IMG/VR virus record: IMGVR_UViG_3300048033_001096
Coordinates: 105,232 to 169,231 of that record
Length of the DNA stretch: 64,000 nt
Source: a virus
Strand: one strand, 5' to 3'
A program made the translations under genes and the position numbers. Shown piece after piece: positions 2,603 to 35,352 of this stretch (position 1 is its first letter; each line of letters opens with the position of its first letter). The notes under the pieces are model-generated. The model saw only the letters and a list, made by a program, of their open reading frames with translations. It ran no database searches and was not told the origin of the DNA.

Positions 2603-2606
2603 AATA

Positions 2607-2813: not shown

Positions 2814-2821
2814 TTTATTAT

Positions 2822-2853
2822 AAAGCCCGATGCTTAACTGTGTCGGGCTTTTT
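2822..2853 (+). terminator. Intrinsic terminator of the putative ncRNA
   Basis: AAAGCCCGA...TCGGGCTTTTT. Confidence 0.8.
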
Positions 2854-2861
2854 CTTTATTT

Positions 2862-2960
2862 GATAAATACTATTGTCAGATAGTGTGCCGCAAGGCGGAC
2901 TTATGCTGTACCCACAGCGTAGCTCATAGAACGGGCATAGGACTACTTTTTATAGGAGAA
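2862..2960 (+). promoter_or_regulatory. Late promoter (GATAAATA) plus structured 5' leader
   Basis: GATAAATA at 2862-2869; hairpins GCC-GCAA-GGC and TTATGCTGT-ACCC-ACAGCGTAG; SD AGGAG. Confidence 0.65.
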
Positions 2961-2965
2961 AACAA

Positions 2966-3421: not shown

Positions 3422-3433
3422 GATAAAAGATAA

Positions 3434-3462
3434 AGTAGGGGAGAAATCCCCTACTACTTTTT
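3434..3462 (+). terminator. Hairpin terminator/attenuator
   Basis: AGTAGGGGA-GAAA-TCCCCTACT followed by ACTTTTT. Confidence 0.65.
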
Positions 3463-3474
3463 AAGGAATTATAA

Positions 3475-16197: not shown

Positions 16198-19100
16198 ATG
16201 TCAGAATTTAAAATTAGTAGATTAAGATTTAGTTGGGTAGGCGAATGGAAAGACCAGTACGTTTACAATAAAGACGAAATTGTACAGTTTGAAGGTAAAG
16301 CGTATGTATGTTTAATACCTCATACATCAAACGGGTTTTACGCAGATTTAAGTAATATTGAACCAAAGTGGGAGTTAATGATGACTGGCCAGACTTGGAA
16401 AGGTCCTTGGCAACAGTTTACAAATTACGCTTTAGACAATATTGTAATTTTTGGTGGTGTTGTTTACAAATGTAACGAACAGCACCTAAGTGCAAGTATT
16501 ATTGATCCAGACATTGACAAGTGGGACGTTTATGCGGAGTCTAAAACTTGGAAAAGCGAATGGACATCTAATACAACATACGGTCCTGGTGATATTGTAA
16601 ACTATGGCGGCTCAGCTTACGAATGTATTATTGCTCATATATCTGCAGAAACAGATCTTTTAGGGTTAGAAGCTGACTATACTGATATTGACGATAGCAC
16701 AGAAAGATATTGGAAACTATCAACATACGGAGTCCAGTACAGGGGCGATTATTCTACATTTTCTGAAGACAGTACATATATTAGATATAAGTTAAATGAT
16801 GTTGTAAAATACGGGCCTAGCTTATATAAATGTATATGGGGACATTCTCCAGGCATTGCAATTGAAGATTTTTCGACTAATATGGAAATGGCCGATTCGT
16901 TTGTTCCAGAATATTGGGAAGAATGGCTACCTGGTTTAGACTTTGATAATGTATGGGATGTTGATACTTTCTATCAACCCGGTGATGTAGTACTATACGG
17001 TGGCTACTTATTCCAGAGTAAAATTATTAATAATCTTGGAAATAAACCTTCAACTACATACGGTGAAGATTCAACAGATGCTTGGGAAATTATATCAGAA
17101 GCATATAGTATTGACGGCGACTGGATAGTCGATTCTGAATATAAAGTAGGTAGTGTTGTTAGATACGGAGGCGACTTATATGTTGCCCTTACTGACAGTA
17201 TAGGTCAAAATCCAGGAAGTTTTGAAGTAACAATACCATACGAATCGGAAGGTTCGTCGGGTAATACTATCATTCTAAATGCTGAAGACTCTGTTCCGCT
17301 CGATGCAATTACTGTAGGTATGACAGTTACTGGTGAAGGGTTTGCTAGAGGTCAACAAGTTGAAGTAGTTGAAGTTGATGCCGAAACAAAACTAATTACA
17401 GTTACATTAAACTATCCGCCCGACGGAGCAATTAACGACGAAGCAGTTCTTACTCTAGCAGGAACAAATTATGCATTTTGGGAATTATTAATTCCAGGAT
17501 TCCAGTATGAAGGAAGATGGAGTGAAGGGCGTACATATAATGCAGATGACGTTGCATATTTTGGAAATGCAACATATAAGTGTACTAGAGAACATACATC
17601 TGCTCTTGTAAATAGACCTGATTTAGATTTACAAAATAATTATTGGATTATTTATTTACAGCACGATCAAAGAAATAGTCTTACAACTCCTGGGCAAATG
17701 ATTGTTTTTGATAAAGACGACGGCAACATACCTTTAGAAATCGGCGACGAAGCATCTATTTTAAAAGTTATTAACGGACTGCCAACTTGGAGTGATATTG
17801 ACTTTACACCAAATGTTTATTATGTTGCTACGAATGGTACTGATTTACCTGATAGAGGGACAACCCCCGATACAGCATGGGCATCGATTAAGTATGCATG
17901 TGAAATTATTAAAGAAGGTACTTTACAACAGAATGCTAAAGAATTAATTCAAAAAAACAAAGAGTGGATTGTGCAAGAAACATTTTATTGGTTCTTGTAT
18001 CAGCAAAATCAAGGTATAGCACCATTTGGTGACTCTTTTAATTTTGATAATGAAAAAGTTATAAGAGATTCTAGACAAATTGTAGATGCAGCAGTTAAAG
18101 ATCTTACACGCGGCGGCAATGCACAAACTGTTGCAGCAGCATTATCCTACTTTGATTTAGAAAGTACAAATAGATTTACAAATGATGAAATTGCAGCACA
18201 GGCTATATATTTTAAAATATTCTTTGTAAAACTATTTGAGCATATCGAATTTGCATTAACTAATACACCTTCAGGTACTAACTATCAACAGCTAGAAGGC
18301 GACAGACTTGGCGGCGATTTAAAACCCGGAATGATTCCATTTGCTACACAATACTTTAACACAAACTTAGTGTTGGATAGTAATACTTTAACAATAGTTA
18401 GAGCATTTGAAAGAATATATGTAGAATCGTTTACACTTGGATCACCAAATACAATTCCTCCAGCTAACGAATCAGCATACTCAACAATTAACATTAAAGC
18501 AGGTACTTATTTAGAAGAATTACCGATTGTTGTTCCTTGTAACTCAGCACTAAACGGTGACGAACTGCGTGGTACAACAGTACAGCCAGCTAATCCAGTT
18601 AACACATTATGTACAAAAACAACAGGCGATATAAATTTATTTACTGTTGGATCTACTGTTAATATGGAACATAATACTCCAGTGCAGTTTGTTTCATTAA
18701 ATCCAATAAACGAAATTAGTACCATTATTGGTGATGTAATTGCCGGACAGACATATTATGTAATTGGAGATTCAATTACGCCCACAGCATTTGCAGTTAG
18801 TGAAGAACCAGACGGTGTACCGTTTGAAATTAGAACTAACATTGGCGGAATGTATGTGTACGGCGGCAACGCACTAAGAGATATGTTCTATGTACAAAAT
18901 GCTACAGGCATACGTAATATGACTGTTAAAGGACTACGAGGAACACTAACAGTAGAAAACGAATACTTAACAAGACGCCCAACTGGCGGAGCATATGTTA
19001 GTTTAGATCCAGGCGAAGGACCGGATGACACAACAGCTTGGATTACTTATAAATCTCCATATATTCAAAACGTAACAACATTTGGTAAAGGCTGTGTTGG

Positions 19101-22100
19101 CCTTAAAATTGATAGTGATTTACATAATGGCGGTAACACTTCAGTTACATCTAATGACTTTACGCAGATTATATCTGACGGAATTGGTATTTGGGCTAAA
19201 GGCGGCGATGCATTAACAGAAGCAGTTTCGGTGTTCTCGTACTACAATTATGCAGGTTATTTTGCAGAAGATGGCGCAAAGATACGTGCAACAAATGGTA
19301 ACAGTTCTTATGGTACTTTTGGTGTTATTGCTGAAGGATTTGATGTAAATGAAGTCCCGGCAGTCGGAGTTGTAAACAACAGAGATAACGAAGCTACAGC
19401 AGAAGCAGTATCAGCATTAGGCCAAAACTCGGAAATTTTAAAAATTCAATATACACATGCAGGTGAAGAATATTACAACACTACAACAAATTTATTACGT
19501 TACTCTAACGATTTACTTGCTGATACGTTATGGCTTACTGATAGTAATTTGTCTATTACTAGAGCTGCAACAACGCCGTACGAAAACGAAGTAGCTTGGA
19601 GAGTTGTTGCAAATACATCACTTACTGATTCTTCTTACTTTTATCAAACAAGAGAAATATCTCCACAAGGAAGAACATATACTAATGTATCAGGATTTAA
19701 TATATCAGGTTCGGGTATTGAAGCTACATTTGATGTAACAGTTAACTCTGACGGATATGAAGTTTCAGTAAATAATGGCGGCAGCGGTTATGTTATTGGA
19801 AATCAAATACAATTAGACGGTAGAAGTTTTGGAGGAAGAAATCCAGAAAATGATATTATTATTACTGTTGAAGATCTAAGTATTACTTCGATATCGCAAA
19901 TACAACATGAAGGAATAGTTCCAGAAGGAAGTGCTTTACCTTATAATGTAAGTATTCATGCTAAGAAAGGTGATACACCGTATTTTGATTTAGTTACTGA
20001 ATTTTCAGGTGGCCCTACATCACAAACAAATTATGTAAGATATAATTTTGAAACTGATTTAGCTACTACAACATTTAATGGTAATACATATCCGCCTACG
20101 AACATAAAAGCTGACTTTTTAGAAGACGGATGGTATAGAATTTCTTATACAGTATTTGACGAGTCAGCATTAAACAATTTAATTACCTTTAAAATTTATC
20201 CAAGAGGTACAGATGGTATTGAAGGATTTACTAATTTTTATGGAGCTCAAATTACTATTGGTAGCGAAGATAAATTCTTTGTTAACACTAAAGATGACAC
20301 TTCTAGTGTATACGCAAATTTAAATATTTCAGGCGCAGGAACTGGTGTTGATGCTCGTGCAAACGAACTAAGAACAGGGTCAGTTTTTCAAGCAAGGCTT
20401 TTAGAAAGCGAACAGGTACGTTTAGGTGGATTAGGATATAATCTACAAACTAACAACGCACAAGCTGGTAATACTGAATATTTAACATTGGCACAGTCAG
20501 AAGTTGCAACAGCAGCTGAATACGAAGGTATGCGACTAGTTGTTAATTCTGGTAAAGGTGCAGGACAATACGGTATTATTTCAAACTATGACGAAACTAC
20601 TAAGTTTGCGTACATTGTTAAAGAATCTTTTGATCAACAAGAACTTGTTGCTGTTAATCCTGTAGAAAATTCATTAGTATTAGGATTAGATTCTGATTTT
20701 CATGGAGTTTATATAGGACAAAAAATTCAAGTTACTCCAACTTTCTACGATATTGGAGTGTCAAGTACTTCGCAAAGCGGTATTGATGTAACAGGAACAC
20801 TAGGCGATTTAAATAATTATATGTTTGTATCTAGTACAGACAGATTGCGTGTAGGACAAAAAATTAATTTTAGTGGCGTTCCTTTCGGCGGAGTTATTAT
20901 TGGATTTGACTATTATATTATTGACATCATTGACGAAAGATCAATACAGATTTCTACATCATTAGGTGGTGCAGTTTGGCCACTTACAAATGTCAATATT
21001 GAAGACCCAGATGATTCGCCAATTGTATTAACTGGAGAGGTTCCTTCGTTTACTTTAAATTATCCAGACGACACTAGCTATCTTACAGCAGATACAACTG
21101 ATAACATGCAAGTTACTTTGCCAATACAATTTACTGGTAAAGCTATTGGCGGAATTGAATTAGGTAGCGTTTATTACATTCAAGAAGTATTTAATGACAC
21201 GCAGTTTTCAATATCTGAATTTATTTTAACAGAGGACGTAACAGCAACTAACGCAGCTAACAATACTTTAATTACTCTTGATACATCAGGGCTAAATCCG
21301 TTAACTCCGATTATATTTAAAGAAGGCAATGTTTTAGGTGGGCTACAAGAAAAAACAAAATACTATGTTAACTCAATTGTAAGTGGTACTGAATTTACAT
21401 TAGCAAGTGATGTTATTACTAGAACTGCAACAGCATCAGAAGGAATTACTAACCTAATTACTGTTGATAGCACAGCAGGATTTATACCAAATTCTCCAAT
21501 AACATTTACTGGAGTAACATTTGGACAAATTGATAATGACAAAGTATACTATATTCAGGTTGTTAACGATGCAACTTCTTTTACAATCTCTGAAGCACCG
21601 GGCGGTGCAGCAGTTCCGTTAACAACAGCAGTTGGTGAAGTTTTTGTTAGGACTTCGTTAGATGAAGTTGTTATTAGCACTGATACCGGAACAATGGAAT
21701 TCCAAACAACAGGTACTAAATTTGTGTTAGATTCTGGCAGAGATATAATGGAAGGATCGTTCTTTACTGAAATATTTGCCGGACTTGAAACTGGTGTAAC
21801 TTATTATGTTGTTGATAAGTTTGATACAAATTCGTCAAAAGAAATTAAGATATCTGAAACAGAAGGTGGCGCAGCAATACTATTAACAGAAGAGTCGGGA
21901 TCAATGCAAGTTAACGAAGTTGGTTGGGATCACATTAACGCAGGAACTCCGTTAGTTACGACTTTTGATTCAACATCTGTTTATCAAATAGAACCAAGAA
22001 TAACATTTGATGCACCGCCATTTTATACAGAACTAATGCCTACCGTATCATTTGGTAACGGTAATGGTTTCTGTACAATTGTTGACGATAACGATAGTCA

Positions 22101-24072
22101 AATTCTTGCAATACCTAATGACGGCGACACTGTGCTCGGAACAACTGATTTTACAGATTGGGACGTTACATACAGATTGCCATTTGACGGTAATGACGGT
22201 ACAAATGGCGGATGGGTTGATGCTACCTACGGTAATAATACTTTCTTTATTATGTCAAAAGACGGTAGTGATTCTTTATATAGTAACTCAGCTGGGTTAA
22301 CTTGGCTTTCGGTTGATATGCCTACATTGCCTGAGGCCGGCCCTGGAGAAAAACAAGGTATTTGGAAATCAGTTGCATACGGTAATGGAAGATTTGTTGC
22401 TATTGCTAATAATGTAGAGAATAGTGCATATTCAACTAATAATTGTAATTCATGGACTGAAGTAACAGGTCCTATAGATATCGAAGGCGAAGAAGATTGG
22501 AGAGATATAGCATACGGTAACGAAATATTTGTAGCAATATCTGGATCAAGCGATACTGCAAAATATTCAACAGATGGCGGAGAAACATGGAACGCTACTG
22601 AAATCACAGGAACATCAACTGTTGATAATTGGAGAGCTATTGAATTTGGCAACGGAAGATTTGTTGCAATTTCAGAAGACGATCGTCCAGCAGTTTACAG
22701 CTTTGACGGCATTACATGGTATCCGTCAAATGTTGATGTATCTGGTAATATTTTAAAATATGCACAAGGAGTGTTTGTAGTTATTAATTCATCAACTGGA
22801 TTATGTTGTACTTCTGCAGACGGATTTACTTGGAATTTACAAACTGATACAGTAGGCGGAGACTACGATGTATGCGGATTTGGACTAGATCCAGATACGA
22901 AAAAAGGTTGGTTTATGACTATTAATGAAGTAGGTAATCAGGCATTTAAAATAAATGCAGGATGTAAAGCAATTGCTAGAGCAAGTGTTGCTAATGCAAG
23001 ACTTACAAGTATTAGCTTACTAGAACCTGGTTCGGGATACGAAGATGATAGCTTTGTTCCTAATGTAAAAATTACAGATCCAAATAATTCCGAAGAAGCT
23101 CTAATACAAGTGCGTGTCGGTAATGGAACATTAGGTGCACCAAACTTTGTAAGTTTCGGTAGTGGGTTTAATACAACGTCTACAGCTATTTCTATTAGGG
23201 GTAATGGTTTTAGTGATTCGTTCCAAACAGGTCTAACATTGATTGCAAAAGAAATTACTAGATTCCCAAGTCCAGGTGACAACTTACAGTTTGAAGGCAA
23301 TCCGGAAGTATATCGTGTTGCTAAAGCAGAAAGATTACGAGGTACCGAAATACCAAATCTTGAGACATTAATAACTTTAAGTCCACAGTTAACACAGGAA
23401 ACAGCACCAAATCATAATACGCCATTTACTATTCGTAGTAGATTTAGTCAATGTCGTATTACAAATCATGACTTCCTAAACATTGGATTTGGTAACGAAG
23501 TACAATCCAATTATCCATTCCTTCCTGAAGAGACAGGACTTGAGCCGCAAGACGAAATTCAAGAAACAAACAACGGGCGTGTGTTCTACTCAAGTACAGA
23601 CCAAGACGGTAACTTTAGAGTTGGTGACTTGTTTGCTGTAGAACAGGCAACAGGTGTCGTTACACTAAGTGCTTCAGAATTTGGACTAGAAGGTCTAACT
23701 GAATTAACAATTGGTGGTGTTGCACTTGGTGGCTCACCGGTTGTTGTTTCAGAATTTTCAACAGATGGTACATTTGTTGCTAACTCAAATAATATTGTTC
23801 CAACACAGAGAGCAATTAGAACATATTTGGCAAGTAGATTGTCACAAGGTGGTTCAGATACATTTACAGGATTGCTACAAGCAGGTACTGTTAAAGTAGG
23901 TGGACCAGACGAAATTACATCATCGGTACCAGAAGGCGGCGAGGGCTGGCAAGTTAAGATTGGTACTAAGGCAATGGTAGACGGACCATTTGCAGGTTGG
24001 AGCGGAGACGGACTAGCAATGTCTTATTTTATGAAGACATTTACCGATCCTACACGCGGCGACTTACAATAA
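16198..24072 (+). CDS. Giant virion protein B1 (CBM5/12-like W..Y..GD.V.Y repeats, interrupted beta-helix, YGNG/Asp-box propeller)
   Basis: ATAAATA at 16164; repeated W.....Y..GD.V.(Y/F)GG..Y.C; YYVATNGTD; GDELR; YGNGRFVA repeats; STDQDGNFRVG. Confidence 0.7.
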   Translation: MSEFKISRLRFSWVGEWKDQYVYNKDEIVQFEGKAYVCLIPHTSNGFYADLSNIEPKWELMMTGQTWKGPWQQFTNYALDNIVIFGGVVYKCNEQHLSASIIDPDIDKWDVYAESKTWKSEWTSNTTYGPGDIVNYGGSAYECIIAHISAETDLLGLEADYTDIDDSTERYWKLSTYGVQYRGDYSTFSEDSTYIRYKLNDVVKYGPSLYKCIWGHSPGIAIEDFSTNMEMADSFVPEYWEEWLPGLDFDNVWDVDTFYQPGDVVLYGGYLFQSKIINNLGNKPSTTYGEDSTDAWEIISEAYSIDGDWIVDSEYKVGSVVRYGGDLYVALTDSIGQNPGSFEVTIPYESEGSSGNTIILNAEDSVPLDAITVGMTVTGEGFARGQQVEVVEVDAETKLITVTLNYPPDGAINDEAVLTLAGTNYAFWELLIPGFQYEGRWSEGRTYNADDVAYFGNATYKCTREHTSALVNRPDLDLQNNYWIIYLQHDQRNSLTTPGQMIVFDKDDGNIPLEIGDEASILKVINGLPTWSDIDFTPNVYYVATNGTDLPDRGTTPDTAWASIKYACEIIKEGTLQQNAKELIQKNKEWIVQETFYWFLYQQNQGIAPFGDSFNFDNEKVIRDSRQIVDAAVKDLTRGGNAQTVAAALSYFDLESTNRFTNDEIAAQAIYFKIFFVKLFEHIEFALTNTPSGTNYQQLEGDRLGGDLKPGMIPFATQYFNTNLVLDSNTLTIVRAFERIYVESFTLGSPNTIPPANESAYSTINIKAGTYLEELPIVVPCNSALNGDELRGTTVQPANPVNTLCTKTTGDINLFTVGSTVNMEHNTPVQFVSLNPINEISTIIGDVIAGQTYYVIGDSITPTAFAVSEEPDGVPFEIRTNIGGMYVYGGNALRDMFYVQNATGIRNMTVKGLRGTLTVENEYLTRRPTGGAYVSLDPGEGPDDTTAWITYKSPYIQNVTTFGKGCVGLKIDSDLHNGGNTSVTSNDFTQIISDGIGIWAKGGDALTEAVSVFSYYNYAGYFAEDGAKIRATNGNSSYGTFGVIAEGFDVNEVPAVGVVNNRDNEATAEAVSALGQNSEILKIQYTHAGEEYYNTTTNLLRYSNDLLADTLWLTDSNLSITRAATTPYENEVAWRVVANTSLTDSSYFYQTREISPQGRTYTNVSGFNISGSGIEATFDVTVNSDGYEVSVNNGGSGYVIGNQIQLDGRSFGGRNPENDIIITVEDLSITSISQIQHEGIVPEGSALPYNVSIHAKKGDTPYFDLVTEFSGGPTSQTNYVRYNFETDLATTTFNGNTYPPTNIKADFLEDGWYRISYTVFDESALNNLITFKIYPRGTDGIEGFTNFYGAQITIGSEDKFFVNTKDDTSSVYANLNISGAGTGVDARANELRTGSVFQARLLESEQVRLGGLGYNLQTNNAQAGNTEYLTLAQSEVATAAEYEGMRLVVNSGKGAGQYGIISNYDETTKFAYIVKESFDQQELVAVNPVENSLVLGLDSDFHGVYIGQKIQVTPTFYDIGVSSTSQSGIDVTGTLGDLNNYMFVSSTDRLRVGQKINFSGVPFGGVIIGFDYYIIDIIDERSIQISTSLGGAVWPLTNVNIEDPDDSPIVLTGEVPSFTLNYPDDTSYLTADTTDNMQVTLPIQFTGKAIGGIELGSVYYIQEVFNDTQFSISEFILTEDVTATNAANNTLITLDTSGLNPLTPIIFKEGNVLGGLQEKTKYYVNSIVSGTEFTLASDVITRTATASEGITNLITVDSTAGFIPNSPITFTGVTFGQIDNDKVYYIQVVNDATSFTISEAPGGAAVPLTTAVGEVFVRTSLDEVVISTDTGTMEFQTTGTKFVLDSGRDIMEGSFFTEIFAGLETGVTYYVVDKFDTNSSKEIKISETEGGAAILLTEESGSMQVNEVGWDHINAGTPLVTTFDSTSVYQIEPRITFDAPPFYTELMPTVSFGNGNGFCTIVDDNDSQILAIPNDGDTVLGTTDFTDWDVTYRLPFDGNDGTNGGWVDATYGNNTFFIMSKDGSDSLYSNSAGLTWLSVDMPTLPEAGPGEKQGIWKSVAYGNGRFVAIANNVENSAYSTNNCNSWTEVTGPIDIEGEEDWRDIAYGNEIFVAISGSSDTAKYSTDGGETWNATEITGTSTVDNWRAIEFGNGRFVAISEDDRPAVYSFDGITWYPSNVDVSGNILKYAQGVFVVINSSTGLCCTSADGFTWNLQTDTVGGDYDVCGFGLDPDTKKGWFMTINEVGNQAFKINAGCKAIARASVANARLTSISLLEPGSGYEDDSFVPNVKITDPNNSEEALIQVRVGNGTLGAPNFVSFGSGFNTTSTAISIRGNGFSDSFQTGLTLIAKEITRFPSPGDNLQFEGNPEVYRVAKAERLRGTEIPNLETLITLSPQLTQETAPNHNTPFTIRSRFSQCRITNHDFLNIGFGNEVQSNYPFLPEETGLEPQDEIQETNNGRVFYSSTDQDGNFRVGDLFAVEQATGVVTLSASEFGLEGLTELTIGGVALGGSPVVVSEFSTDGTFVANSNNIVPTQRAIRTYLASRLSQGGSDTFTGLLQAGTVKVGGPDEITSSVPEGGEGWQVKIGTKAMVDGPFAGWSGDGLAMSYFMKTFTDPTRGDLQ

Positions 24073-24105: not shown

Positions 24106-27100
24106 ATGGCAGAGTTTAAACTAGGTAGAATTAGATTTGTTTGGCAGGGCGACTGGAGTGCTGATCGAACATATGTTGCAGACGATGTTGTAAGTTTTGG
24201 TGGTAAATCATACATTTGTATTAGAAACCATACATCAACAGCATCATTCCAAAATGATTTTGATAGTGAAATCAAGAAATGGGATATTGTTTCAGATGGT
24301 ACAGCTTGGCAAGGTGATTGGGAACCAGAATTTAGTTATGCACCAGGTGACGTTGTGCGTTATGGTGCAATTGTTTACATTGCAGAAACTGGGCATGTTT
24401 CTGCAACATTTGAATCACCTGACTTCTTAGGACTAGAAGCTGACTTAGACAAATGGACACCTTTTGCTACATCCTTTGATTGGAAAAGCGATTGGGAAAC
24501 CGCAACTAGATATAAAATTAACGACCTAGTACGTTATGGTGGATTTGTTTATCTGTGTAATACTGCTCATGTTTCTGCCGCAACAGTAGCACTTGGATTA
24601 GAAAACGATCAAGGTAAATGGACTTTATTCAGTGACGGATTAGTATACTTAGGAGAATGGGTAACTGAAAATCGTTATCGTTTAAACGATGTTGTTAAGT
24701 ACGGCGGCAACGTGTTTATCTGTACTACTCCGCACACATCAAATGACTTTATAAGTGATGAAGTAAACTGGGATGTATTTATTGAAGGCTTCCAGTTTGA
24801 AGATAGTTGGAATAATTCTACTGTTTATCAAATTGGTGATACTATTACATACGGTGGTTATGTATATGTTGCTAAGACTAACAATACAAACGCACAGCCA
24901 ACAGCAAGTCCAGATGATTGGGAAGTGTTTACAACTGGATTTGCGTTTCAAGGTGATTGGAGTTCGTTAGATAGTTACAAAGTAGGCGATGTTGTACGTT
25001 TGGGAGGCAATACTTATGTAGGTATCGCCGACAGCTTAGATCAAGAACCGCCAAATGATACTTATTGGAGTAGATTAAACTCTGGCATCAATTGGACTAG
25101 AAGCGTCGAATCTTTCTCACAAGTAGCTGGTACAAATGCAGCAGGGCAGTCAGGTTCAGGAGCACGATTTGACGTTGTTAAATCAAATACAGTTTACACT
25201 GTAAGTGTTTCAACAGGCTTTACTGGTACAGGTTATGCCGAAAATGATGTTATTACATTGTCAGGCGCAGATGTAGGCGGAACAACTCCGGCTAACGATA
25301 TTGTTGTAACTGTAACAGGAGTCACAGCCGGTGCAGTTGATTCAATTACTCATACTGGATTCTCGTCCTCTTGGATTGCTGGAAAAGATTACCATGTTGG
25401 TGATGTAGTTATATATGGAGCAAGTTCGTTTATTTGTGTAACTAAAAATACTTCAGAAACTGATAATAGACCAGACAATGACACTGAAGCAGTTTACTGG
25501 AACATTTTAACAATTGGATCCGAAGCACTATCGCTTGAAGTATCTGGCGACATGGTTTACTACGGTAATAATGGTCCAACTAGACTCCCAATCGGAGTTG
25601 ACGGACAAATTTTACGTGCAACTGACGGATTTCCTGAATGGGCAAACTATGGCCTAATTGACAACGTTGTTTATGTTGGCCCACTAGGTACTGATATTCC
25701 TGCACCTGAATCAGGACTAACAATTGACAAACCTTTTGCTAGTGTACGTTATGCACTTGATCAAATTCGTAACGGATATCTAAATCCTAAGACACGAGAT
25801 GTATTAAGAAATAATAAACAGTTTTTAATCAAAGAAGCATCTGAATGGGTAAAATATAATTATAATGTGCAGATTACTGCATCGGCAAGTGGCACACGTA
25901 CATTTACTTGTAACAGTACAGAAAATTTACGTGACGGGATTCCGTTTGTGTTTAGTGGAGACGTATTTGGAGGAGTTACTGCTGGAACAACATATTACAT
26001 CGATGCTATTATAAGCTCAACTGAATTTAGAATTAGTGACACTCAAGGTGGTATATCAATAATACTTACAGACGACACTGGTACTATGGAAGGTAATGCA
26101 TCTGTAAACTTTGACAATTTAGAAGCAGACTGTGCTAGAATTGTTGATGGTATAATTTATGATGTTTCAAGAGGCGGAACATTAAAGACTACTACTGCTA
26201 CAAACTTATATTATGTGAATACATATACATTTAGTGTTGAAAGCAATAATTATGTTTCACAAGAAGTTCAAGAACAAAAAACAATTAACCAAGAAGTATA
26301 TACAAAATTAAAAGATATTATTGACGATGTTGTAAATAATAGACACCCTGTTAATTATCAAGCTCTTAATGATATTAGTGTAGAAGACAGAGCACAGCAA
26401 GTACTTGATCTTGATCTAGTTGCTGAAGACCGCGGCAAGGAAAAAGCCGGCGACCTTCTTGACATTGTTGTTAATGGTATTGTTGCAGGATCTAACACAG
26501 CAATTGCTTTACCTGTACTTCCAAATACTACAGTGTTTATCAAGACAGGTACTTATAACGAAGTATTGCCAATGATTCTTCCAGAATACACTGCGGTAGT
26601 TGGAGACGAACTACGTACAAGTGTTGTACAACCTCGACCTGCTATTGCAAAACTAGCAAACGACAAAAATAAAACAACTAGTGCATTAAACAGAATTAAA
26701 GATCTTGCTCCTAAAGTAATACAAAATATTGAAGTAGAAAAAACAGCTGGAAACACTGCTATACAACAATATGTTAACGGTTATGGCGGCACAACTACTA
26801 CAACAAATAGATTAAACAATGGTATTGAAAAACTATCTGATATTTTAGAAAAAGGATTAACAGAAGTAGACCTATTACCTAACGTAGGACCTGTTCCTAC
26901 TAGTGGATCAAATAATGCAAGTGATAGTGGCTTTGCAAATGCTATTGCACAAATTGAAGCTAACGTTGACTTTATTGTTGCAGAGCAAACTGCTTGGATC
27001 CAAGCACAAGTAGACGGCGAGATTGCACCTTTTGCATCAGACTTTACGTTTGATACTGCAAACTGTGAAAGAGATACACGTTATATCTTAGATGCACTAC

Positions 27101-30100
27101 GTTACGATTTAACTTACGGTGGCAACTTAGAAACAACGGTTGCAGCAAGAAGTTATTTTGTAGACGGAAATCCAGTATACGGTACTGGCAAAAAAGAAGA
27201 AACACTTGCAACGTATGCTCATCTAAAATTGATTGTTAGCGATATAATTATTGAAGCTGCAATTACACCAACAGTCGGCAATGATGTAACACAAAATACA
27301 GACGGCGATGCAGGTTCAGCAGCAGCAGAAACATTTGCAGATACACGTATTCAAGAAATTTATGATACTATTGACACAGACGGTACACTACCTACACCTG
27401 TATTACCTGATACAAGTTGGGTTGACGGGGTTGTAAGTTCAGTTGTGTCAGACTTTGTTGCTGTAAAAGCAGACATTCAATCTGGAGCTATTGAATGGGT
27501 AAACGAAAATTATCCAACACTTGATTATAACCAAACTAAGTGCGAACGCGATGTAGGATACTTTGTAGATGCGTTAGAATATGATATACTATTTGGAAGT
27601 ACATTCCGTTCTACTAAAGCAGGCATGTCTTATCGTAGAGCAATTAGTTCTGCAGAAGTAGTAATTGATAGTCAATTAGAACCTACAATCGGAACTGTTG
27701 ATTATACTAGAGATAGAATTAAGTATTACACTACTAGGACTGCTAAAGTTGACGAAAGTACAGATTTAATTCTTGACATTTTAGAGAATGGTTCGGGATC
27801 TATTCCGTCTAGTTATACATACACAGATCCTGCAGGTTATGATACAGGATTTTTAAATGCTAGAAGATTAATTTCAGTAAATAAAGATTTTATTGTCTCT
27901 GAAATTGATGCATTCATGACTGACAACTACGGAGCATTTTGGGTGGCTTTAGATTCAGATTCAAAGGCACAGTGGTTAGAAGATTTAGACGAACAAGTTG
28001 AAGCTCTTAAGTATGATTTAACATACAGAGGTAACTTAGCAACTATTATACAATCAAGACTGTATTATGATTTACAAGGTGCGTTTGTGAGAGGCGCTAA
28101 TGAAAAAACAGAATCTTTAGCAGCACAGCAAAGACTAATTGATATTATTTCAGATATTGCATTAGGTACATTAATTACAAAGTCAACAAGCAATGCTGAT
28201 ACACAAGACAATACTGGAACAGCTGGGTCTGCAGGTGCAGCAGCATTTGCTCAAGATAGAGCTCAAGAAATTTATGAGTCTGCTGATAGTGGATTAGAAC
28301 CTGCATTAATTAGTCCATCAACAGCATGGACTGATGCTGCATTACAAGATCTTAAAACAGTACTTGATTCTAGATCAGAAACAATACAACTAGCTGCAAC
28401 AGATTATATTGATTTCTTATATCCTACACTAGATTATGATACATCACTATGCCAACGCGATGTTGGTTATATGATTGACGGTATTGGATACGATGTTATT
28501 TTTGATAGTAATTACTTAACAGTACAAAATGCTATAGCATATCGTAGAGGAACAGTTTCAACAGAACTAGTATTAAGTTCTCAACTACAAGAAACATTGT
28601 CTACAATTAGATTTGTAAACTCAACACTTACAGAAATTACTAAAGGTGTTGTTAGCGATACTGGTACAAGAGCTGCTGGCGATGCTGCATTTAAACTAGT
28701 TAAGGACATGAATACTATTATTCAAAATGGATTAGAAGCATTGCCGCCAATTAGTTATCCAACTGCTCCAGGCTACAATACTGCTGATTTTGCAGACACT
28801 GCATATGCAACAACATCAAATACAACCGGTGCAACAACAACTTATGGTGATGCAGCGGATCAGATTGTTGCTAACTACGAGTTTATACAAGATGAAGTTC
28901 GAAAGTGGTTAGAAGATTCAAATAACGGTTATGATGTTATTTGGGGATCTATTACTCCAGATGGGCAAGACCGTTGTATACGAGATGTAGGGTATATTTT
29001 AGATGCAGTGCGTTATGATTTAACATACGGTGGCAACACACAGTCATTAATTGCAGGCAGTGCATATTATTCAAATTTTGTATTAACAATTTCAGCAGCT
29101 GAGCTTCCGGCTACACTTGCAGCATATGCAAGACTAAAAGAAGTTGTTGAAGAAGTAATTGCTGAAACTACAGTAACTACAAGTCCAGGCGTGACTGAAG
29201 TACAAGACACAAGTGGAACACCTGGTAATACATCTTCAATTGAATTTGCTGGTGATAGAATTGACGATGTTCTTGACTACATTAATAATGCAAATCCAAA
29301 TGATACTATTGAAATTGCAAATAGTTGGCAACAAAAAGGAATTACAAAATCTTATAACAGAATTAAAAATCGTAAAGATGAAATTGTTGAAGATGTTGTA
29401 TTTTATGTTGAAAAATTCCATCAAGAATTGCAATACAATCAAGATACATGTCGTAGAGATGCAGCACTAATGGTTGATGCAATTGCACGTGATCTTTATA
29501 CTGGATCAAATTTTGCTACAACTAAAGCAGGTATGAGCTATTATAGATTAATAGCAAGTGCTTTAGAAGTTGTTAATAACGAACTGTATGCAACTGTAAA
29601 TAGTGTTGAGTTCTTAGCACAAAAAATAAGAAAAGTTGCAACTGTATCAGCTAATGCATCAATTGATTTGCTGATAACTGATATTACGTCATTTATTAAC
29701 GGTGGCAAAGTTCCAATTAATAAATGGGTTATAGCTGATGATTCAGACACAGCAGATGTTGCTGCGGCATCAATTATCTGGGAAAATAAAGCATATATTG
29801 TAGCAGAAGTTATTGCATTCTTAGATGATGCATACCCAGAGTTGACATATAATAAAGATAAATGTCGTAGAGATACAGGAATGCTTGTTGATGCAGTGCG
29901 TTATGATCTAACTTATGGAAGTAACTATGCAACACAAAAATTTGCAGAATTTTATTATCAGAAAAACTTTAACGAAGAATTTGAAATTGTTATTAGTACC
30001 GACGAAAAGGCAGCTACACTTGCAGCATATGATTATGCTAAACAAATCTTAACAGGATTAGCAGTAAACGATATTACTAGCCCTGGTGCAATACAAAATA

Positions 30101-33100
30101 AAGTAACAGTTAAAAGTAGAGATTCGTTACAGCTAGTTGGTGATGCAGGTTCTTTAGCAAGAGTAGAAGAATTATTAACTGATGTTTATAATTCTTTAGA
30201 AGATTTAGAAACTCAGCGCCCGTCATTAACTGTTATAGCAACTACGGATTCTACAAACGCACTTACTACAGATGCACCGCACGGATTAGTTGAAGGCAGT
30301 TTAATTAGCTTTACAGATACATTCCAAGATGTTGATACTTATTATGTTAAAGAGGTACTTAGCTCAACACAGCTAACAATTTCAACATACTTTGGCGGAC
30401 CAGTTGTAGAAGTATCAGATCAAGTAGACTTAATAATTACTGGATATTCGTTAAAAACAGCCAGTGTAGCTGAAACACCAGCTACACTTAAACAACAGTT
30501 TACAAACTTATCTGGTTCGATTGCAGCAATCAAAGGTGCAGTTACTGATTTTATTAATGATAAGTATCCTACACTTGATTACGATGTTGCAAAGTGTGAA
30601 AGAGACGTTGGATACATTGTTGAAGCAGTTGGAAGAGACATGATGTCTAATTCTAATTACTTAACTCAAATTGCATCTCAAGCATACTTTAGAGGAACTC
30701 AAGCTGATAAAGTTTTAGGCGATCAAAAAAATGCAACTGTACAATCTTATAGAGAGCTTAAAAATGTAATTGCAACATATATTAGTGGTGTTGACTTAGC
30801 TAAAAAGCGCACAAATGCATTAATGGATATTATTATTAATATGCTTGACAAAGGTAATGGCAATACTCCGGAAATTCACGGAACTGTTACATACTTTAAT
30901 GATAAAGAAACAATTAATGCTGTTGACATACTAAAAGCTAACAAAAACTTCTTAGCAAACGAAGCAACTGCTTGGATTACTGCATCATTTGGTGGTACAG
31001 TTACTGACATTGAAGGATCGCCGGGAACTATTAGATTTGCTAATGATCATAACTTAATTGTTGGTGACCCAATTGTATTTGATGATAATGCATTTGGTGA
31101 CTTAGTAGCAGGACAAACATACTATGTTGTAAATGTAACTGACACATCAGGAGTTGAAATTTCAGACGAGGTAGACGGCGAGGCACTGGTCCTTGACGTA
31201 GCTTCAGGGTCGAGCGTAGCATTATATGATTATGATCCTGCATTGTGTCGTAGAGACATGGAGCGTTATATTGAGGCTATTGTTTATGACTTACAATATC
31301 CAGGAAATCATAAATCTTGGAAAGCAGCAGAACTTTATTTAAATGCTGTTAATGGTTCAGAAAAATCAGATATGTATCATGTACGTAATGCAACTGGTGT
31401 TCGTAATCAAACTGTTAACGGGTTGCGCGGCAACTTAACAGAGCTTAATGATTTTGGTACAAGACGCCCAACAGCTGGTGCATATGTATCACTAGATCCT
31501 GGGTTTGGTCCAAATGATACTGAAGCCTGGGTAACTAATAAATCGTGTTATGTACAAAACGTATCAACATTTGGTGTAGGATGCGTAGGTTGTAAAATTG
31601 ACGGTGCTATCCATTCAGGCGGTAACAGATCAATTGTTAGTAACGACTTTACACAGATTCTAAGTGACGGTATTGGAGTATGGTGTAGTGGTAACAACTC
31701 ACTAACAGAGCTTGTTTCAGTATTCGCATATTATAACTATTCAGGTTACTTAGCAGACTTTGGCGGAAGAATTCGTGCAACAAATGGTAACAGTTCTTAC
31801 GGTACATACGGTGTTATTGCTGAAGGTACTGACACTGGTGAAGAACCAATTACAGCAACTATTGATAACCTTTCTCAAGATGCAATAATTTACGGTGTAC
31901 CAACTGACGGTGAAGAAGAAGTACTTGGTTTTGAATTTGCAAACGTGGGTACAGGATACACTAATGCCGAAGTTGCTATTAGCGGTACTGGATTTAATGC
32001 AGCCGTTAAAGTAGACGAGTTCCGTGACCGAGCTGTTGTTGAAACACGTATTATTGATCTAAACGACGGTAACGGAATTGGCGGCTCTGATTATATTACT
32101 GCACAAAACGTTGCACAGGGCGGCAGTGCTGTACACTTGCAACTCGCTGCAACTGATTTTGCTTTAAGTACTGCATATGTAGGAATGAATGCACAAATAA
32201 CAGCAGGTACAGGAGTTGGACAATATGCTAAAATATTAGCGTTTAACAACGGTACAAAAAATGCAACAGTTTATAAACCAAGCATTGATCCGTTTACAAT
32301 TACTGGAACAACTGCAAGTACTGATATTGTTACAATTACAGGAAATTACGAGCAACTTAGTGTAAACGACCCAGTTTATGTTGCTGAAGCAGTAGGTGGA
32401 CTTGATGCAGGTACAACTCCAAGTCGCGTTTACTATGTTATTACTAATAACTTAGACGGAACTATTCAGTTAAGTGACGAAGAAGGAGGAGCAGCAGTAA
32501 CGCTTACAACTACAGTAGGACAGTCTGTTAAACTGTATGTTGCAGGATGGGACAATGTTATTCCGGGCAAGTTGGCAGAAGTTGAATTAAACTTAACAAC
32601 AGGTTATACAATTGAACCTTCGGTTCATTATACAGAGCCAGGATTTACAACTAATTCTAGTACAACAGCAGATGCCATTGGTTTTGATAGAGTTGAATAT
32701 GCTCTTGGTAGATATGTAGCATTTCCAAATAATGGTACACAAACTAACTACTCACTAGACGGTAAGACTTGGATACAAGGTGGCGTACTACCAGCAACAG
32801 GCAATTGGAGTGCAAGTGCATACGGCGGAGGCGACGGCGCAATTGCAACTGCTATTGTTGGCGGACTAGGTGGTTCGGGTGCAGTACTTGAAGCAGAACT
32901 AGGTGAGATTAATAGTATTGGTCTTCCAGGACCAACACAGATTGCAAGAATAAATGTAATTAATGGCGGAACTGGATTTGTAACTGCACCAACTATTGTG
33001 TTTACTTCAGTCCAAGGCGGCGGCGGCGCAAGTGCTGTTGCAACTGTTAAAGACGGATCGATTCAAAGCATTATTATTACAAGTACAGGAGCTGGTTACG

Positions 33101-35352
33101 CAGCAGCACCAACAGTAACAGCAGAAACTGACAGAGTTACAGAAATTATTGTAAATGCTCGCGGTAGAGGATATTTAAGTGCTCCAACAGTGACACTTTC
33201 CGGCGGTGGCGCAAGCACACAAGCTCAAGTAACTGCTATTACAGAAAATCAAGGCGTAACAATTATTAGCATTGATGAAGATGAAGATAATAATCCTTTA
33301 AGAGGCAGCGGCTACACTAGTGCTCCAACAGTAACTATTACAGATACTGATGCAAAATGGGTAGCAATAGCACCGGGTTCTATTAACAATGCATATTTGT
33401 TGCAGTCAGATGCAGCTAATGCAGTTTGGACAGTTGGCAATCCTTTACCAAACTCAGGAATAGCAGATATTGCATATGGTAATGGTACGTGGACTGTAGT
33501 TGGCGGTGCAGGAGGCACAGGAAGTGCAGGAACGTCAACTGACGGTATTACTTGGGTGTCAAGAACTAATACAACACCAGCAGCTGGTGATTTTGTAAGT
33601 GTTGCATACGGAAGTACAAGGTTTGTTGCAATTAACGACAACGGATTTACATCGTATAGTTCCAATGGTATTACTTGGACTGCAGGCGGATCACTACCTG
33701 GTACAGAAACAGATTGGAAAAAAGTTGTTTACGGTAACGGTCGATTTGTTGCAATAAGCAGCAGCGGTGACCAAGCTATAAGTTATGACTTTGGTGAAAA
33801 CTGGTTTGCAGGATCAACATCTCTTGCTAATATTTCTAGTAATCCAAATGACTGGGAAACAGTAGAATACGGACAAGGTTTATTCCTTGCAAGTGGATCA
33901 TCTGGAGGAATTTTTGCAACTTCACAAGATGGTGTAATTTGGACAGATAGAACAATTGGAGGAACAGCAGGTTATGCAGGAATAGCATTTGGTAACACAT
34001 CAAATACTCCATTATGGGTAGCTGTAACAGGAAGTGGATCTAATGACGCAAGATGGATTGAAACTGGTGCTAGACCGAATGGTAGAACTTATGTTGACGA
34101 TGATAATATTGTACAGTTTACGTTAAGAGAACCAGGCTCAGGATTCCCCGAAGGTAACATTGTAAGTACAACAGCACCAAATACTATTGAAGTAGACACA
34201 ACATCAAACTTGTTTATTGGTCAACCAATTACATTTGACGGTAGTGATATTGATGCAGTTGGATTAGATTCAGAAGTTGTGTATTATATTTCCGACATAC
34301 CAACAAGTACTACTATTGAAGTATCGTTAATTAAAGGAAGTGATCCGTTTGACATTACATCGGTTAACGCAAATAATATTGGAACAATAATATTCCAAGC
34401 AGGCCCTTCTGTAACAATTGGAGATCCAAACGCAACTGTAGAAGTAGCAGTAAATCCAAGAATTAGAAGTGGAACATTAGCACAACCGTCATTTACTAAT
34501 AGAGGTGCAGGATATACTACTGCAACTGCTGAATTAGGCGGCGACGGTAATGCTGATTTGTATCAGCCAAGTACATTTATATCATTACGTGGATTATTTG
34601 AATTACCAGAGCCAGGCTCAAACGTTGTATTTGATAATATTCTAAACAGATGGTATAAATTGGTTACAATTAGTAATGTTATTGGACAACCGGGTGAATA
34701 CACAGCAACGTTCCAAATTAGTCCAGGACTTAATACACTTAATGCTCCTAAGGACGGAACTAAAATTACAACTACTAACAAATATTCGCAAGTACGCCTA
34801 ACAGGACATGACTTCTTGTATATTGGTACAGGCAACCAAGCTAAAACAAACTATCCGTTTGTTGATATTACAACAGCAAGTATTGATAGACAACAGTTAA
34901 GCAGTGGCGGCGGACGAGTATTCTTTACAAGTACTGACCAAGATGGTAACTTTAACGTTGGTGGCTTGTTTGGAGTCCAACAGTCCACAGGTACTGCGAC
35001 ATTGGATGCTGATGCATTTAACTTAGCAGGATTGCAGTCATTGCAACTTGGTGGTATTGCTGTTGGTATTGGATCGGCTATTATTACACAGTTTAGTACA
35101 GACCCGTTCTTTACTGAAAATAGTGATAGTATTGTTCCAACACAACGTGCTATTAAGAGTTATATTACAGCACAGATTGGTGGTGGTCAGTCAAGTCTAA
35201 ACGTTAACACATTAACAGCAGGTGTTGTGTTTATTGCAAATGACGAAATTACTACAACAAGCGGCGGACAGCTAAATATTAAAGCGAAAATGAATTTTAC
35301 AGGTGGTATTGACGGAGCTCCAGTAGCACTTGGATACTTCTTATCTAGATAA
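24106..35352 (+). CDS. Giant virion protein B2 (paralog of B1) with tandem phycobiliprotein-like helical repeats
   Basis: GATAAATA at 24073; MAEFKLGRIRFVWQGDW resembles B1; CBM-like repeats; 8 CxRD..Y..DA..YDL repeats; propeller; shared C-terminal domain. Confidence 0.7.
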   Translation: MAEFKLGRIRFVWQGDWSADRTYVADDVVSFGGKSYICIRNHTSTASFQNDFDSEIKKWDIVSDGTAWQGDWEPEFSYAPGDVVRYGAIVYIAETGHVSATFESPDFLGLEADLDKWTPFATSFDWKSDWETATRYKINDLVRYGGFVYLCNTAHVSAATVALGLENDQGKWTLFSDGLVYLGEWVTENRYRLNDVVKYGGNVFICTTPHTSNDFISDEVNWDVFIEGFQFEDSWNNSTVYQIGDTITYGGYVYVAKTNNTNAQPTASPDDWEVFTTGFAFQGDWSSLDSYKVGDVVRLGGNTYVGIADSLDQEPPNDTYWSRLNSGINWTRSVESFSQVAGTNAAGQSGSGARFDVVKSNTVYTVSVSTGFTGTGYAENDVITLSGADVGGTTPANDIVVTVTGVTAGAVDSITHTGFSSSWIAGKDYHVGDVVIYGASSFICVTKNTSETDNRPDNDTEAVYWNILTIGSEALSLEVSGDMVYYGNNGPTRLPIGVDGQILRATDGFPEWANYGLIDNVVYVGPLGTDIPAPESGLTIDKPFASVRYALDQIRNGYLNPKTRDVLRNNKQFLIKEASEWVKYNYNVQITASASGTRTFTCNSTENLRDGIPFVFSGDVFGGVTAGTTYYIDAIISSTEFRISDTQGGISIILTDDTGTMEGNASVNFDNLEADCARIVDGIIYDVSRGGTLKTTTATNLYYVNTYTFSVESNNYVSQEVQEQKTINQEVYTKLKDIIDDVVNNRHPVNYQALNDISVEDRAQQVLDLDLVAEDRGKEKAGDLLDIVVNGIVAGSNTAIALPVLPNTTVFIKTGTYNEVLPMILPEYTAVVGDELRTSVVQPRPAIAKLANDKNKTTSALNRIKDLAPKVIQNIEVEKTAGNTAIQQYVNGYGGTTTTTNRLNNGIEKLSDILEKGLTEVDLLPNVGPVPTSGSNNASDSGFANAIAQIEANVDFIVAEQTAWIQAQVDGEIAPFASDFTFDTANCERDTRYILDALRYDLTYGGNLETTVAARSYFVDGNPVYGTGKKEETLATYAHLKLIVSDIIIEAAITPTVGNDVTQNTDGDAGSAAAETFADTRIQEIYDTIDTDGTLPTPVLPDTSWVDGVVSSVVSDFVAVKADIQSGAIEWVNENYPTLDYNQTKCERDVGYFVDALEYDILFGSTFRSTKAGMSYRRAISSAEVVIDSQLEPTIGTVDYTRDRIKYYTTRTAKVDESTDLILDILENGSGSIPSSYTYTDPAGYDTGFLNARRLISVNKDFIVSEIDAFMTDNYGAFWVALDSDSKAQWLEDLDEQVEALKYDLTYRGNLATIIQSRLYYDLQGAFVRGANEKTESLAAQQRLIDIISDIALGTLITKSTSNADTQDNTGTAGSAGAAAFAQDRAQEIYESADSGLEPALISPSTAWTDAALQDLKTVLDSRSETIQLAATDYIDFLYPTLDYDTSLCQRDVGYMIDGIGYDVIFDSNYLTVQNAIAYRRGTVSTELVLSSQLQETLSTIRFVNSTLTEITKGVVSDTGTRAAGDAAFKLVKDMNTIIQNGLEALPPISYPTAPGYNTADFADTAYATTSNTTGATTTYGDAADQIVANYEFIQDEVRKWLEDSNNGYDVIWGSITPDGQDRCIRDVGYILDAVRYDLTYGGNTQSLIAGSAYYSNFVLTISAAELPATLAAYARLKEVVEEVIAETTVTTSPGVTEVQDTSGTPGNTSSIEFAGDRIDDVLDYINNANPNDTIEIANSWQQKGITKSYNRIKNRKDEIVEDVVFYVEKFHQELQYNQDTCRRDAALMVDAIARDLYTGSNFATTKAGMSYYRLIASALEVVNNELYATVNSVEFLAQKIRKVATVSANASIDLLITDITSFINGGKVPINKWVIADDSDTADVAAASIIWENKAYIVAEVIAFLDDAYPELTYNKDKCRRDTGMLVDAVRYDLTYGSNYATQKFAEFYYQKNFNEEFEIVISTDEKAATLAAYDYAKQILTGLAVNDITSPGAIQNKVTVKSRDSLQLVGDAGSLARVEELLTDVYNSLEDLETQRPSLTVIATTDSTNALTTDAPHGLVEGSLISFTDTFQDVDTYYVKEVLSSTQLTISTYFGGPVVEVSDQVDLIITGYSLKTASVAETPATLKQQFTNLSGSIAAIKGAVTDFINDKYPTLDYDVAKCERDVGYIVEAVGRDMMSNSNYLTQIASQAYFRGTQADKVLGDQKNATVQSYRELKNVIATYISGVDLAKKRTNALMDIIINMLDKGNGNTPEIHGTVTYFNDKETINAVDILKANKNFLANEATAWITASFGGTVTDIEGSPGTIRFANDHNLIVGDPIVFDDNAFGDLVAGQTYYVVNVTDTSGVEISDEVDGEALVLDVASGSSVALYDYDPALCRRDMERYIEAIVYDLQYPGNHKSWKAAELYLNAVNGSEKSDMYHVRNATGVRNQTVNGLRGNLTELNDFGTRRPTAGAYVSLDPGFGPNDTEAWVTNKSCYVQNVSTFGVGCVGCKIDGAIHSGGNRSIVSNDFTQILSDGIGVWCSGNNSLTELVSVFAYYNYSGYLADFGGRIRATNGNSSYGTYGVIAEGTDTGEEPITATIDNLSQDAIIYGVPTDGEEEVLGFEFANVGTGYTNAEVAISGTGFNAAVKVDEFRDRAVVETRIIDLNDGNGIGGSDYITAQNVAQGGSAVHLQLAATDFALSTAYVGMNAQITAGTGVGQYAKILAFNNGTKNATVYKPSIDPFTITGTTASTDIVTITGNYEQLSVNDPVYVAEAVGGLDAGTTPSRVYYVITNNLDGTIQLSDEEGGAAVTLTTTVGQSVKLYVAGWDNVIPGKLAEVELNLTTGYTIEPSVHYTEPGFTTNSSTTADAIGFDRVEYALGRYVAFPNNGTQTNYSLDGKTWIQGGVLPATGNWSASAYGGGDGAIATAIVGGLGGSGAVLEAELGEINSIGLPGPTQIARINVINGGTGFVTAPTIVFTSVQGGGGASAVATVKDGSIQSIIITSTGAGYAAAPTVTAETDRVTEIIVNARGRGYLSAPTVTLSGGGASTQAQVTAITENQGVTIISIDEDEDNNPLRGSGYTSAPTVTITDTDAKWVAIAPGSINNAYLLQSDAANAVWTVGNPLPNSGIADIAYGNGTWTVVGGAGGTGSAGTSTDGITWVSRTNTTPAAGDFVSVAYGSTRFVAINDNGFTSYSSNGITWTAGGSLPGTETDWKKVVYGNGRFVAISSSGDQAISYDFGENWFAGSTSLANISSNPNDWETVEYGQGLFLASGSSGGIFATSQDGVIWTDRTIGGTAGYAGIAFGNTSNTPLWVAVTGSGSNDARWIETGARPNGRTYVDDDNIVQFTLREPGSGFPEGNIVSTTAPNTIEVDTTSNLFIGQPITFDGSDIDAVGLDSEVVYYISDIPTSTTIEVSLIKGSDPFDITSVNANNIGTIIFQAGPSVTIGDPNATVEVAVNPRIRSGTLAQPSFTNRGAGYTTATAELGGDGNADLYQPSTFISLRGLFELPEPGSNVVFDNILNRWYKLVTISNVIGQPGEYTATFQISPGLNTLNAPKDGTKITTTNKYSQVRLTGHDFLYIGTGNQAKTNYPFVDITTASIDRQQLSSGGGRVFFTSTDQDGNFNVGGLFGVQQSTGTATLDADAFNLAGLQSLQLGGIAVGIGSAIITQFSTDPFFTENSDSIVPTQRAIKSYITAQIGGGQSSLNVNTLTAGVVFIANDEITTTSGGQLNIKAKMNFTGGIDGAPVALGYFLSR

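Follow-up and report, generated by a model that had tools for sequence, protein, structure and literature searches.

A string of phycobiliprotein-like globin domains in a giant tail-fibre-type protein of an uncultured jumbo phage, and its possible use in bilin binding

The window analysed here, a stretch of 64,000 nucleotides covering positions 105,232 to 169,231 of the IMG/VR virus record IMGVR_UViG_3300048033_001096, encodes a giant protein of the tail-fibre type. Residues ~660–2430 of this protein very probably form a string of domains that are homologous to the branch of the globin fold comprising phycobiliproteins and bilin biosynthesis-associated globins (BBAGs), each with predicted counterparts of helices B, E, F', F, G and H and none with the X-Y hairpin. 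With the same high confidence, the source is an uncultured aquatic jumbo phage, a member of a lineage of ~360–400 kb jumbo myoviruses whose nearest cultured relatives infect Proteobacteria. Full-text literature searches found no description of phycobiliprotein-like domains in phage structural proteins.

An initial inspection of the letters and translations (below, the sequence-only reading) had listed eight C-x-R-D motifs in the open reading frame (ORF), with Cys codons at 27064, 27541, 28450, 28975, 29449, 29863, 30595 and 31246, and all eight positions proved exact. The motifs account for 8 of the 18 Cys in the whole protein, in which Cys makes up 0.5% of the residues; when the protein was shuffled 20,000 times, the mean number of C-x-R-D occurrences was 0.045 and the maximum 2, against the eight observed. 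The repeat module is helical and ~150 amino acids long. A hidden Markov model of the copies recovers eight full copies, one of them without the Cys (E 1e-17 to 1e-57), and also detects two partial copies in the fibre ORF and one copy in a paralogous ORF. The features are as follows.

24106–35352, plus strand: giant tail-fibre-type ORF (P0001), 3748 amino acids, from the ORF list, the translation and PHROG matches.
24106–25110 (approximate), plus strand: N-terminal CBM5/12-like repeats, Pfam PF02839, 108.8 bits, six stretches, the best at residues 17–47.
26077–26559, plus strand: copy 0, partial (helices E to H), degenerate motif C-A-R-I; profile E 1.1e-09, profile positions 45–148.
26893–27429, plus strand: copy 1, CERD, Cys codon 27064; profile E 1.1e-38.
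27394–27861, plus strand: copy 2, CERD, Cys codon 27541; profile E 1.7e-50.
27811–28311, plus strand: copy 3, full length, motif-less with W-L-E-D (residues ~1246–1389); profile E 1.9e-28, and alignment.
28303–28797, plus strand: copy 4, CQRD, Cys codon 28450; profile E 1.9e-46.
28804–29313, plus strand: copy 5, CIRD, Cys codon 28975, domain 1 of the two-domain model; profile E 9.7e-39.
29302–29760, plus strand: copy 6, CRRD, Cys codon 29449, the single-domain model; profile E 2.9e-43.
29716–30273, plus strand: copy 7, CRRD, Cys codon 29863, followed by a non-helical insert to ~30447; profile E 2.2e-40.
30448–30921, plus strand: copy 8, CERD, Cys codon 30595; profile E 8.2e-50.
31204–31401, plus strand: copy 9, partial (helix E and F' only), CRRD, Cys codon 31246; profile E 1e-08, profile positions 44–84.
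17890–18219, plus strand: single Cys-less copy in the paralogous ORF 16198–24072, V-I-R-D (triad VRD); profile E 1.1e-12.

The eight motifs are thus not eight complete repeats, since the last of them (31246) belongs to a partial domain only. Two degenerate copies had also been proposed: the one near 26120 is indeed partial and carries C-A-R-I, whereas the one near 27970 is a full-length copy in which W-L-E-D stands in place of the motif. The Cys-less copy suspected near 18060 in the paralog was recovered by the profile. Copy 0 (residues 669–748) reads C-A-R-I in this record and CERD in the orthologs, and copy 9 lies between a beta-rich module and a conserved Cys- and Gly-rich segment. Two small beta-rich modules that resemble each other (25920–26130 and 31050–31230, with motifs like G-D-P-I-V-F ... 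A-G-T-T-Y-Y-V) each precede one of the partial copies (0 and 9), as if substituting for the first helices.

The sequence evidence for a relationship with phycobiliproteins comes mainly from homologs and from profiles. Neither the window protein nor its single copies give any match to PF00502, for which the gathering cut-off is 22.2 bits. Among the top 120 of the 533 giant homologs found in metagenomes, 19 carry a precomputed match to this family, and a re-scan gave 26.0 bits for P0012 and 33.3 bits for P0062, the matches spanning profile positions 72–154 and so reaching far past the C-x-R-D motif. One copy in a complete related genome (G057) scores 30.6 bits, and 10 of 117 diverse single copies match PF00502 at E <= 0.01, while no other Pfam family recurs. 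When HMMER profiles were compared with the sequences in the Protein Data Bank (PDB), phycocyanin alpha made up 28 of the 32 matches for a profile of eight window copies (best E 0.017) and 30 of 32 for a profile of 117 copies (best E 0.016). These alignments cover helices B and E and place the repeat Cys on Cys84, in agreement with the register relative to Cys84, Arg86 and Asp87 given in the sequence-only reading; the local identity to phycocyanin alpha that it described was reproduced in the alignments to PDB chains. In C-phycocyanin alpha the C-x-R-D motif occupies the same register at the start of helix E, and up to ~11 of 21 residues around it are alike.

Structure models were generated with AlphaFold (AF2) without templates and from alignments that contained phage sequences only. 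A two-domain model (28738–29790, residues 1545–1895, 47 sequences) reached a predicted local distance difference test score (pLDDT) of 85 and a predicted template modelling score (pTM) of 0.82, and a single-domain model (29305–29775, residues 1734–1890, 117 sequences) reached 90.2 and 0.85. In a Foldseek search with the single domain the top 50 hits were all phycobiliproteins or their derivatives, at probability 1.0 and with E-values of only ~0.03–0.1; smURFP superimposes with template modelling scores of 0.66/0.76 and a root mean square deviation (rmsd) of 2.8 Å. The sequence-only reading had named modelling and fold comparison of single repeats as the way to check it, and the predicted fold is globin-like and phycobiliprotein-like. 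A second fold search, with VIA-align against 48,161 representative chains, placed eight phycobiliproteins first (Z 13.2–15.3, 116–133 residues aligned), followed by bilin-binding photocobilins (12.5 and 11.9), sensor globins and RsbR (10–11) and haemoglobins (~7). The two-domain model gave the same order, phycoerythrin beta (5aqd_M) aligning to model residues 16–183 with Z 13.6. By the tool's own account helical models can reach Z ~13 by arrangement alone, and for this reason the case for homology rests on the agreement of Pfam, the PDB profiles and the models, which together bear out the assignment of the repeats to phycobiliprotein-like globin-fold domains, and not on Z. An ESM Atlas search with one copy returned no usable match, and a three-copy complex prediction of one domain scored 0.10 against a mark of 0.42, which is uninformative on fibre trimerisation.

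If the resemblance were convergent, an unrelated helical bundle would carry C-x-R-D by chance. The modest HMMER E-values against PDB sequences (only 0.016–0.3), the lack of a Pfam match for the window's own copies and the frequency with which helical models reach Z ~13 by chance arrangement would all fit such an origin. We nevertheless consider it highly improbable: three independent lines agree in register, PF00502 exceeds its cut-off in homologs over positions 72–154, the profile matches are nearly all to phycocyanin alpha, and the fold ranks descend in order from phycobiliproteins through photocobilins and sensor globins to haemoglobins.

The phage domains share with phycobiliprotein alpha and beta chains and the ApcE domain (8or7_A, 4xxi_A, 5aqd) the globin-like helices B to H, with 116–133 of 157 residues aligned at an rmsd of 2.1–3.6 Å and Z of 13–15. 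They differ from them in several respects. The VIA alignments begin only at residue ~29–49 of the solved phycobiliprotein chains, and the model has no helices that would match the N-terminal X-Y hairpin and only a reduced helix A. A single phage fibre protein of 3748 residues contains about ten fused copies; the copies have an invariant Asp of their own in a Y-D-L motif as well as a G-G-N motif, and they occur without lyase or linker proteins. Because the X-Y hairpin, which is used for antenna pairing, is absent and the domains are fused head to tail, the repeats are not canonical antenna subunits.

The motif is well conserved. At each of the eight sites, Cys is kept in 24–27 of 28 orthologs and Arg and Asp in 25–28. 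In a wider set of 398–524 non-identical copies from 70 related loci, with a mutual identity of ~25%, Cys is present in 80–82%, Arg in 90–93% and Asp in 97%, and the Asp of the downstream Y-D-L motif in 100%. A lack of Cys conservation in homologs, which the sequence-only reading had named as counter-evidence, was seen at neither level. The triad is intact in 357 of 459 copies (78%, 70 loci), in 35 of 43 copies in G057 and in 10 of 11 in a second complete genome, G055. Conservation peaks in polar columns, all of them on helix E or at the start of F' (Asp 100%, Asp 97%, Tyr 94%, Arg 90%, Asn 82%, Cys 82%). Where the Cys is missing, in ~20% of copies, its place is usually taken by Thr, Ala, Val or Ser, with Arg and Asp kept. 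His does not exceed 8% in any alignment column of the 524 copies; with no conserved proximal His, and with sensor globins ranking below phycobiliproteins (Z ~10.7), haem binding of the globin type was rejected.

The polar face could instead hold some other ligand, such as a host surface sugar, a metal or a small molecule, in which case their role would be that of adhesin or sensor modules. The strongly conserved Asp/Asp/Asn/Tyr cluster and the location of the domains in a fibre-borne protein with N-terminal sugar-binding CBM5/12 repeats are compatible with such a role. The exact CxRD register of phycobiliproteins is retained, the scarcity of His makes globin-type haem ligation unlikely, and the fold searches returned no known glycan-binding globin fold, all of which leads us to regard a ligand other than bilin as distinctly unlikely.

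CXRD is the motif through which phycobiliproteins and some BBAGs bind bilin, and chromophore binding is the only role known for it (PMC10151467). BBAGs are phycobiliprotein relatives of heterotrophic bacteria that, like the phage domains, stand outside antennae and in some cases carry CXRD; they bind bilin without lyases, in organisms that have a PcyA-type reductase and no phycobilisome (Rockwell, Martin and Lagarias 2023, PMC10151467). The likeness is by published description and not by direct sequence comparison, and the two groups differ in setting: the genes for BBAGs, which are small cytoplasmic proteins that stand alone, neighbour those for pre-PcyA and haem oxygenase (HO), whereas the phage domains follow one another in tandem within a structural protein. 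The neighbourhood typical of BBAG genes, HO with a PcyA-type reductase, does not occur in the source record, and in the related phages the corresponding cassette lies >100 kb from the fibre genes.

On the strength of motif retention, the lyase-free precedent of the BBAGs and the bilin genes of the phage lineage itself, we tentatively propose that the fibre domains bind bilin. The sequence of events, which we put forward with the same reserve as a whole, would begin in the infected cell, where each domain would take up a linear tetrapyrrole made by phage HO and a PcyA/PcyX-like reductase; in the source phage the missing half of the genome would presumably contain the genes for HO and the reductase, unless the host supplies the pigment. 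Arg and Asp would hold the bilin, and its thioether bond to the Cys would form without any known lyase, by analogy with BBAGs and ApcE, and the assembled fibre would carry about eight pigments per chain. Such pigments might stabilise the domains, shield against light or oxidants, or sense light.

The distribution of bilin genes in the lineage lends this proposal its context. Among 50 related records, adjacent genes for HO and a ferredoxin-dependent bilin reductase (FDBR), the latter PcyA-like, were found only in the most complete one (G020; 278 kb, 75% complete). Homologs of its reductase occur in 340 IMG/VR stretches. Phycobiliprotein-like domains are encoded by every one of the nine contigs that have FDBR and measure at least 128 kb, and by none of seven fragments of <= 96 kb. 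The nine include two genomes that are 100% complete, G055 (364 kb, FDBR and 11 domain copies) and G057 (400 kb, FDBR and 42 domain matches, most of them in one 6682-residue ORF). HO is present in five of five FDBR-bearing genomes tested. The capsid proteins of the FDBR-bearing genomes are 83–85% identical to that of the window, and these genomes therefore belong to the same lineage as the source phage. A conserved block in the relatives (loci L081, L092, L102, L106 and L135, ~60–3680 of each) consists of DnaK, an IbpA-like small heat-shock protein, ClpS, HO and the PcyA-like reductase. PHY and GAF domains and a stand-alone PF00502 gene were not found in the large cassette-bearing genomes. Two side observations concern these genomes. 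The 6682-residue ORF (G057:C1:103000-125000; loci L170 and L171) contains ~35 tandem copies, to which two other ORFs, of 4122 and 2381 residues, add more, and lipoprotein genes, some with CsgF/CsgG-like N-termini, lie downstream of the HO-FDBR block.

A number of observations weigh against the binding of bilin by the fibre. HO (ho1/hemO), FDBR, CpeT and CpeS were all not found in the 169-kb source record, an absence that is weak evidence because the DnaK-IbpA-ClpS-HO-FDBR region of the relatives is not in the contig; DnaK and another flanking gene are absent from this record and from four other large records without the cassette. Lyases of the S- and T-types (PF09367, PF06206) were found in none of the record, G055 and G057, the E/F-type HEAT lyases not having been included in that search. 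The late-promoter word TATAAATA was seen upstream of HO/FDBR in none of 63 loci and so gives no sign of co-regulation with structural genes. The nine-of-nine co-occurrence may reflect kinship within one lineage. The cultured Pelagibacter phage Mosig, whose genome is complete, encodes HO and an FDBR that is 50% identical to that of the lineage, and neither the copy profile nor PF00502 finds a phycobiliprotein-like domain in it; the domain was also not found by profile in the cyanophage P-SSM2. Since both phages are without the domain, phage bilin synthesis has other uses and needs no such domains, and a strict rule that bilin genes always accompany the domains was rejected on these two cases. 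The co-occurrence that the sequence-only reading had suggested looking for is strong within the lineage, but fails in Mosig, which has no domain. Across all copies, the ~20% without the Cys fit a packing role as well as non-covalent binding, and the sole invariant residue, the Asp of Y-D-L, has no phycobiliprotein counterpart. In Mosig (locus L178, MT647606.1, 35653–44330) the genes for HO and the PcyA-like reductase lie directly upstream of neck genes, just after a ferrochelatase gene and four genes for 2OG-Fe(II) oxygenases.

A structural role without pigment is nearly as likely as the binding of bilin. The fold would then have been exapted as a rigid helical bead that lengthens the fibre, and the Cys, Arg, Asp, invariant Asp, Asn and Tyr would constitute a structural network. 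Several of the features described above suit such a role: the domains stand in series in the fibre shaft beside other spacer-type modules; the invariant Asp, like the conserved Asn and Tyr, is foreign to phycobiliproteins; small residues replace the Cys in about a fifth of the copies with Arg and Asp staying; and the record contains no bilin genes, while those of Mosig need no such domains. Globin-like domains without a cofactor do exist, and two of them, RsbR and pXO2-61, rank at a VIA Z of ~11. A spacer accounts less readily for a Cys that is kept at 80–96% per site among copies ~25% identical, in a protein that is 0.5% Cys, for conservation that falls on polar residues of the chromophore helix and not on the hydrophobic core, or for the presence of HO and FDBR in all large records of the same lineage that sample that region of the genome.

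The assignment of the 3748-residue protein to the tail-fibre type is based on profile matches and gene position. The ORF matches PHROG tail-fibre families phrog_9851 (E 5.6e-178; best stretch residues 123–335), 4527 and 5342 (5.2e-51 and 1e-50) and also 701, and six N-terminal CBM5/12 repeats are the sole matches in a Pfam scan. It is surrounded by genes for the major head protein, two baseplate-wedge proteins, a 2624-residue fibre paralog, the distal fibre, the sheath and the tube, a neighbourhood that is the structural block of a T4-type myovirus. These tail-fibre matches and structural neighbours speak for the location of the array in a tail-fibre-type protein, a putative component of the virion. 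The paralog (16198–24072) shares tail-fibre PHROGs 9851 and 5073 with the fibre and has only the one Cys-less globin-like copy.

The source record is a 169-kb IMG/VR contig with a completeness of 46% according to CheckV. Its capsid protein is 67–72% identical to those of jumbo phages of Sinorhizobium, Vibrio, Pseudomonas (PA5oct) and Erwinia, the closest isolates, and a search of the region at the DNA level gave no match to isolate phages. The host is probably not a cyanobacterium; psbA was not found in five large related records, and this, together with the Proteobacteria jumbo phages as capsid kin, makes a cyanophage origin unlikely.

The domain is common in cultured T4-like cyanophages. A tblastn search with a copy from DSL-LC03 matched 391 isolate records, among them S-PM2, P-HM2, Syn1 and S-WAM2, where the annotation of the matched protein reads short tail fibre, gp7 baseplate wedge, VrlC or virion structural protein. 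In these phages, giant proteins of the fibre and baseplate (the short tail fiber/VrlC-type protein of S-PM2, gp7 of P-HM2, hypothetical proteins of DSL-LC03) contain the same domain family with CxRD and are annotated only as structural or hypothetical. They differ from the protein of the window in having fewer copies each, in belonging to phages whose hosts make bilins and in that some of these phages carry cpeT. Five genomes were compared by profile:

S-PM2 (NC_006820.1): nine copies, CxRD present.
P-HM2 (NC_015284.1): four copies, CxRD present.
DSL-LC03: four copies, CxRD present.
P-SSM2 (NC_006883.2): no copies.
P-SSP7 (NC_006882.2): no copies.

S-PM2 carries cpeT 1.5 kb upstream of its giant ORF, and P-HM2 carries it as well; the gene is absent from DSL-LC03, P-SSM2, P-SSP7 and Mosig. 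As more than 60% of T4-like cyanophages carry cpeT (PMC10665884), its association with the domain is weak, and a rule that the domains always accompany cpeT was rejected because DSL-LC03 lacks the gene.

Adsorption in the dark is absent in P-HM2, whereas P-SSP7 and, less well, P-SSM2 are capable of it (Liu et al. 2019, PMC6628666), and S-PM2 is likewise reported without dark adsorption (PMC6628666). The presence of the domain thus matches light-dependent adsorption in four of four phages (S-PM2 and P-HM2 versus P-SSM2 and P-SSP7), a sample so small that the match is a lead only. It is conceivable, and in our estimate rather unlikely, that the fibre is a virion-borne bilin photoreceptor, in which light absorbed by a phage-made or host-made bilin would alter the fibre and allow adsorption only in the light. 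Such a receptor would account for the need of S-PM2 and P-HM2 for light, independent of photosynthesis, in adsorption, and it would provide an acceptor for the HO/PcyX genes of phages that infect heterotrophs.

Should the domains prove to bear bilin, the protein would be the first phage tail fibre with a pigment. The purpose of bilins in phages of non-photosynthetic bacteria has been left open, with BBAG-like globins named as one possibility (PMC11480375), and a pigmented fibre would bear on that purpose, on the light sensor behind light-dependent adsorption of cyanomyoviruses and on the substrate of phage cpeT gene products. If the domains are pigment-free, they would still show clearly that the fold of an antenna protein has been adopted as a construction element of virus fibres, and widely so, in view of the 533 giant homologs in metagenomes.

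A minor point concerns the annotation of S-PM2 (locus L184, NC_006820.1, 163870–176349). In RefSeq, 16 tRNA genes lie inside an 11-kb "short tail fiber" coding sequence whose locus tag is in the style of a tRNA; the frame nevertheless stays open over ~3790 amino acids, and the coordinates of the RefSeq feature look inconsistent with the sequence.

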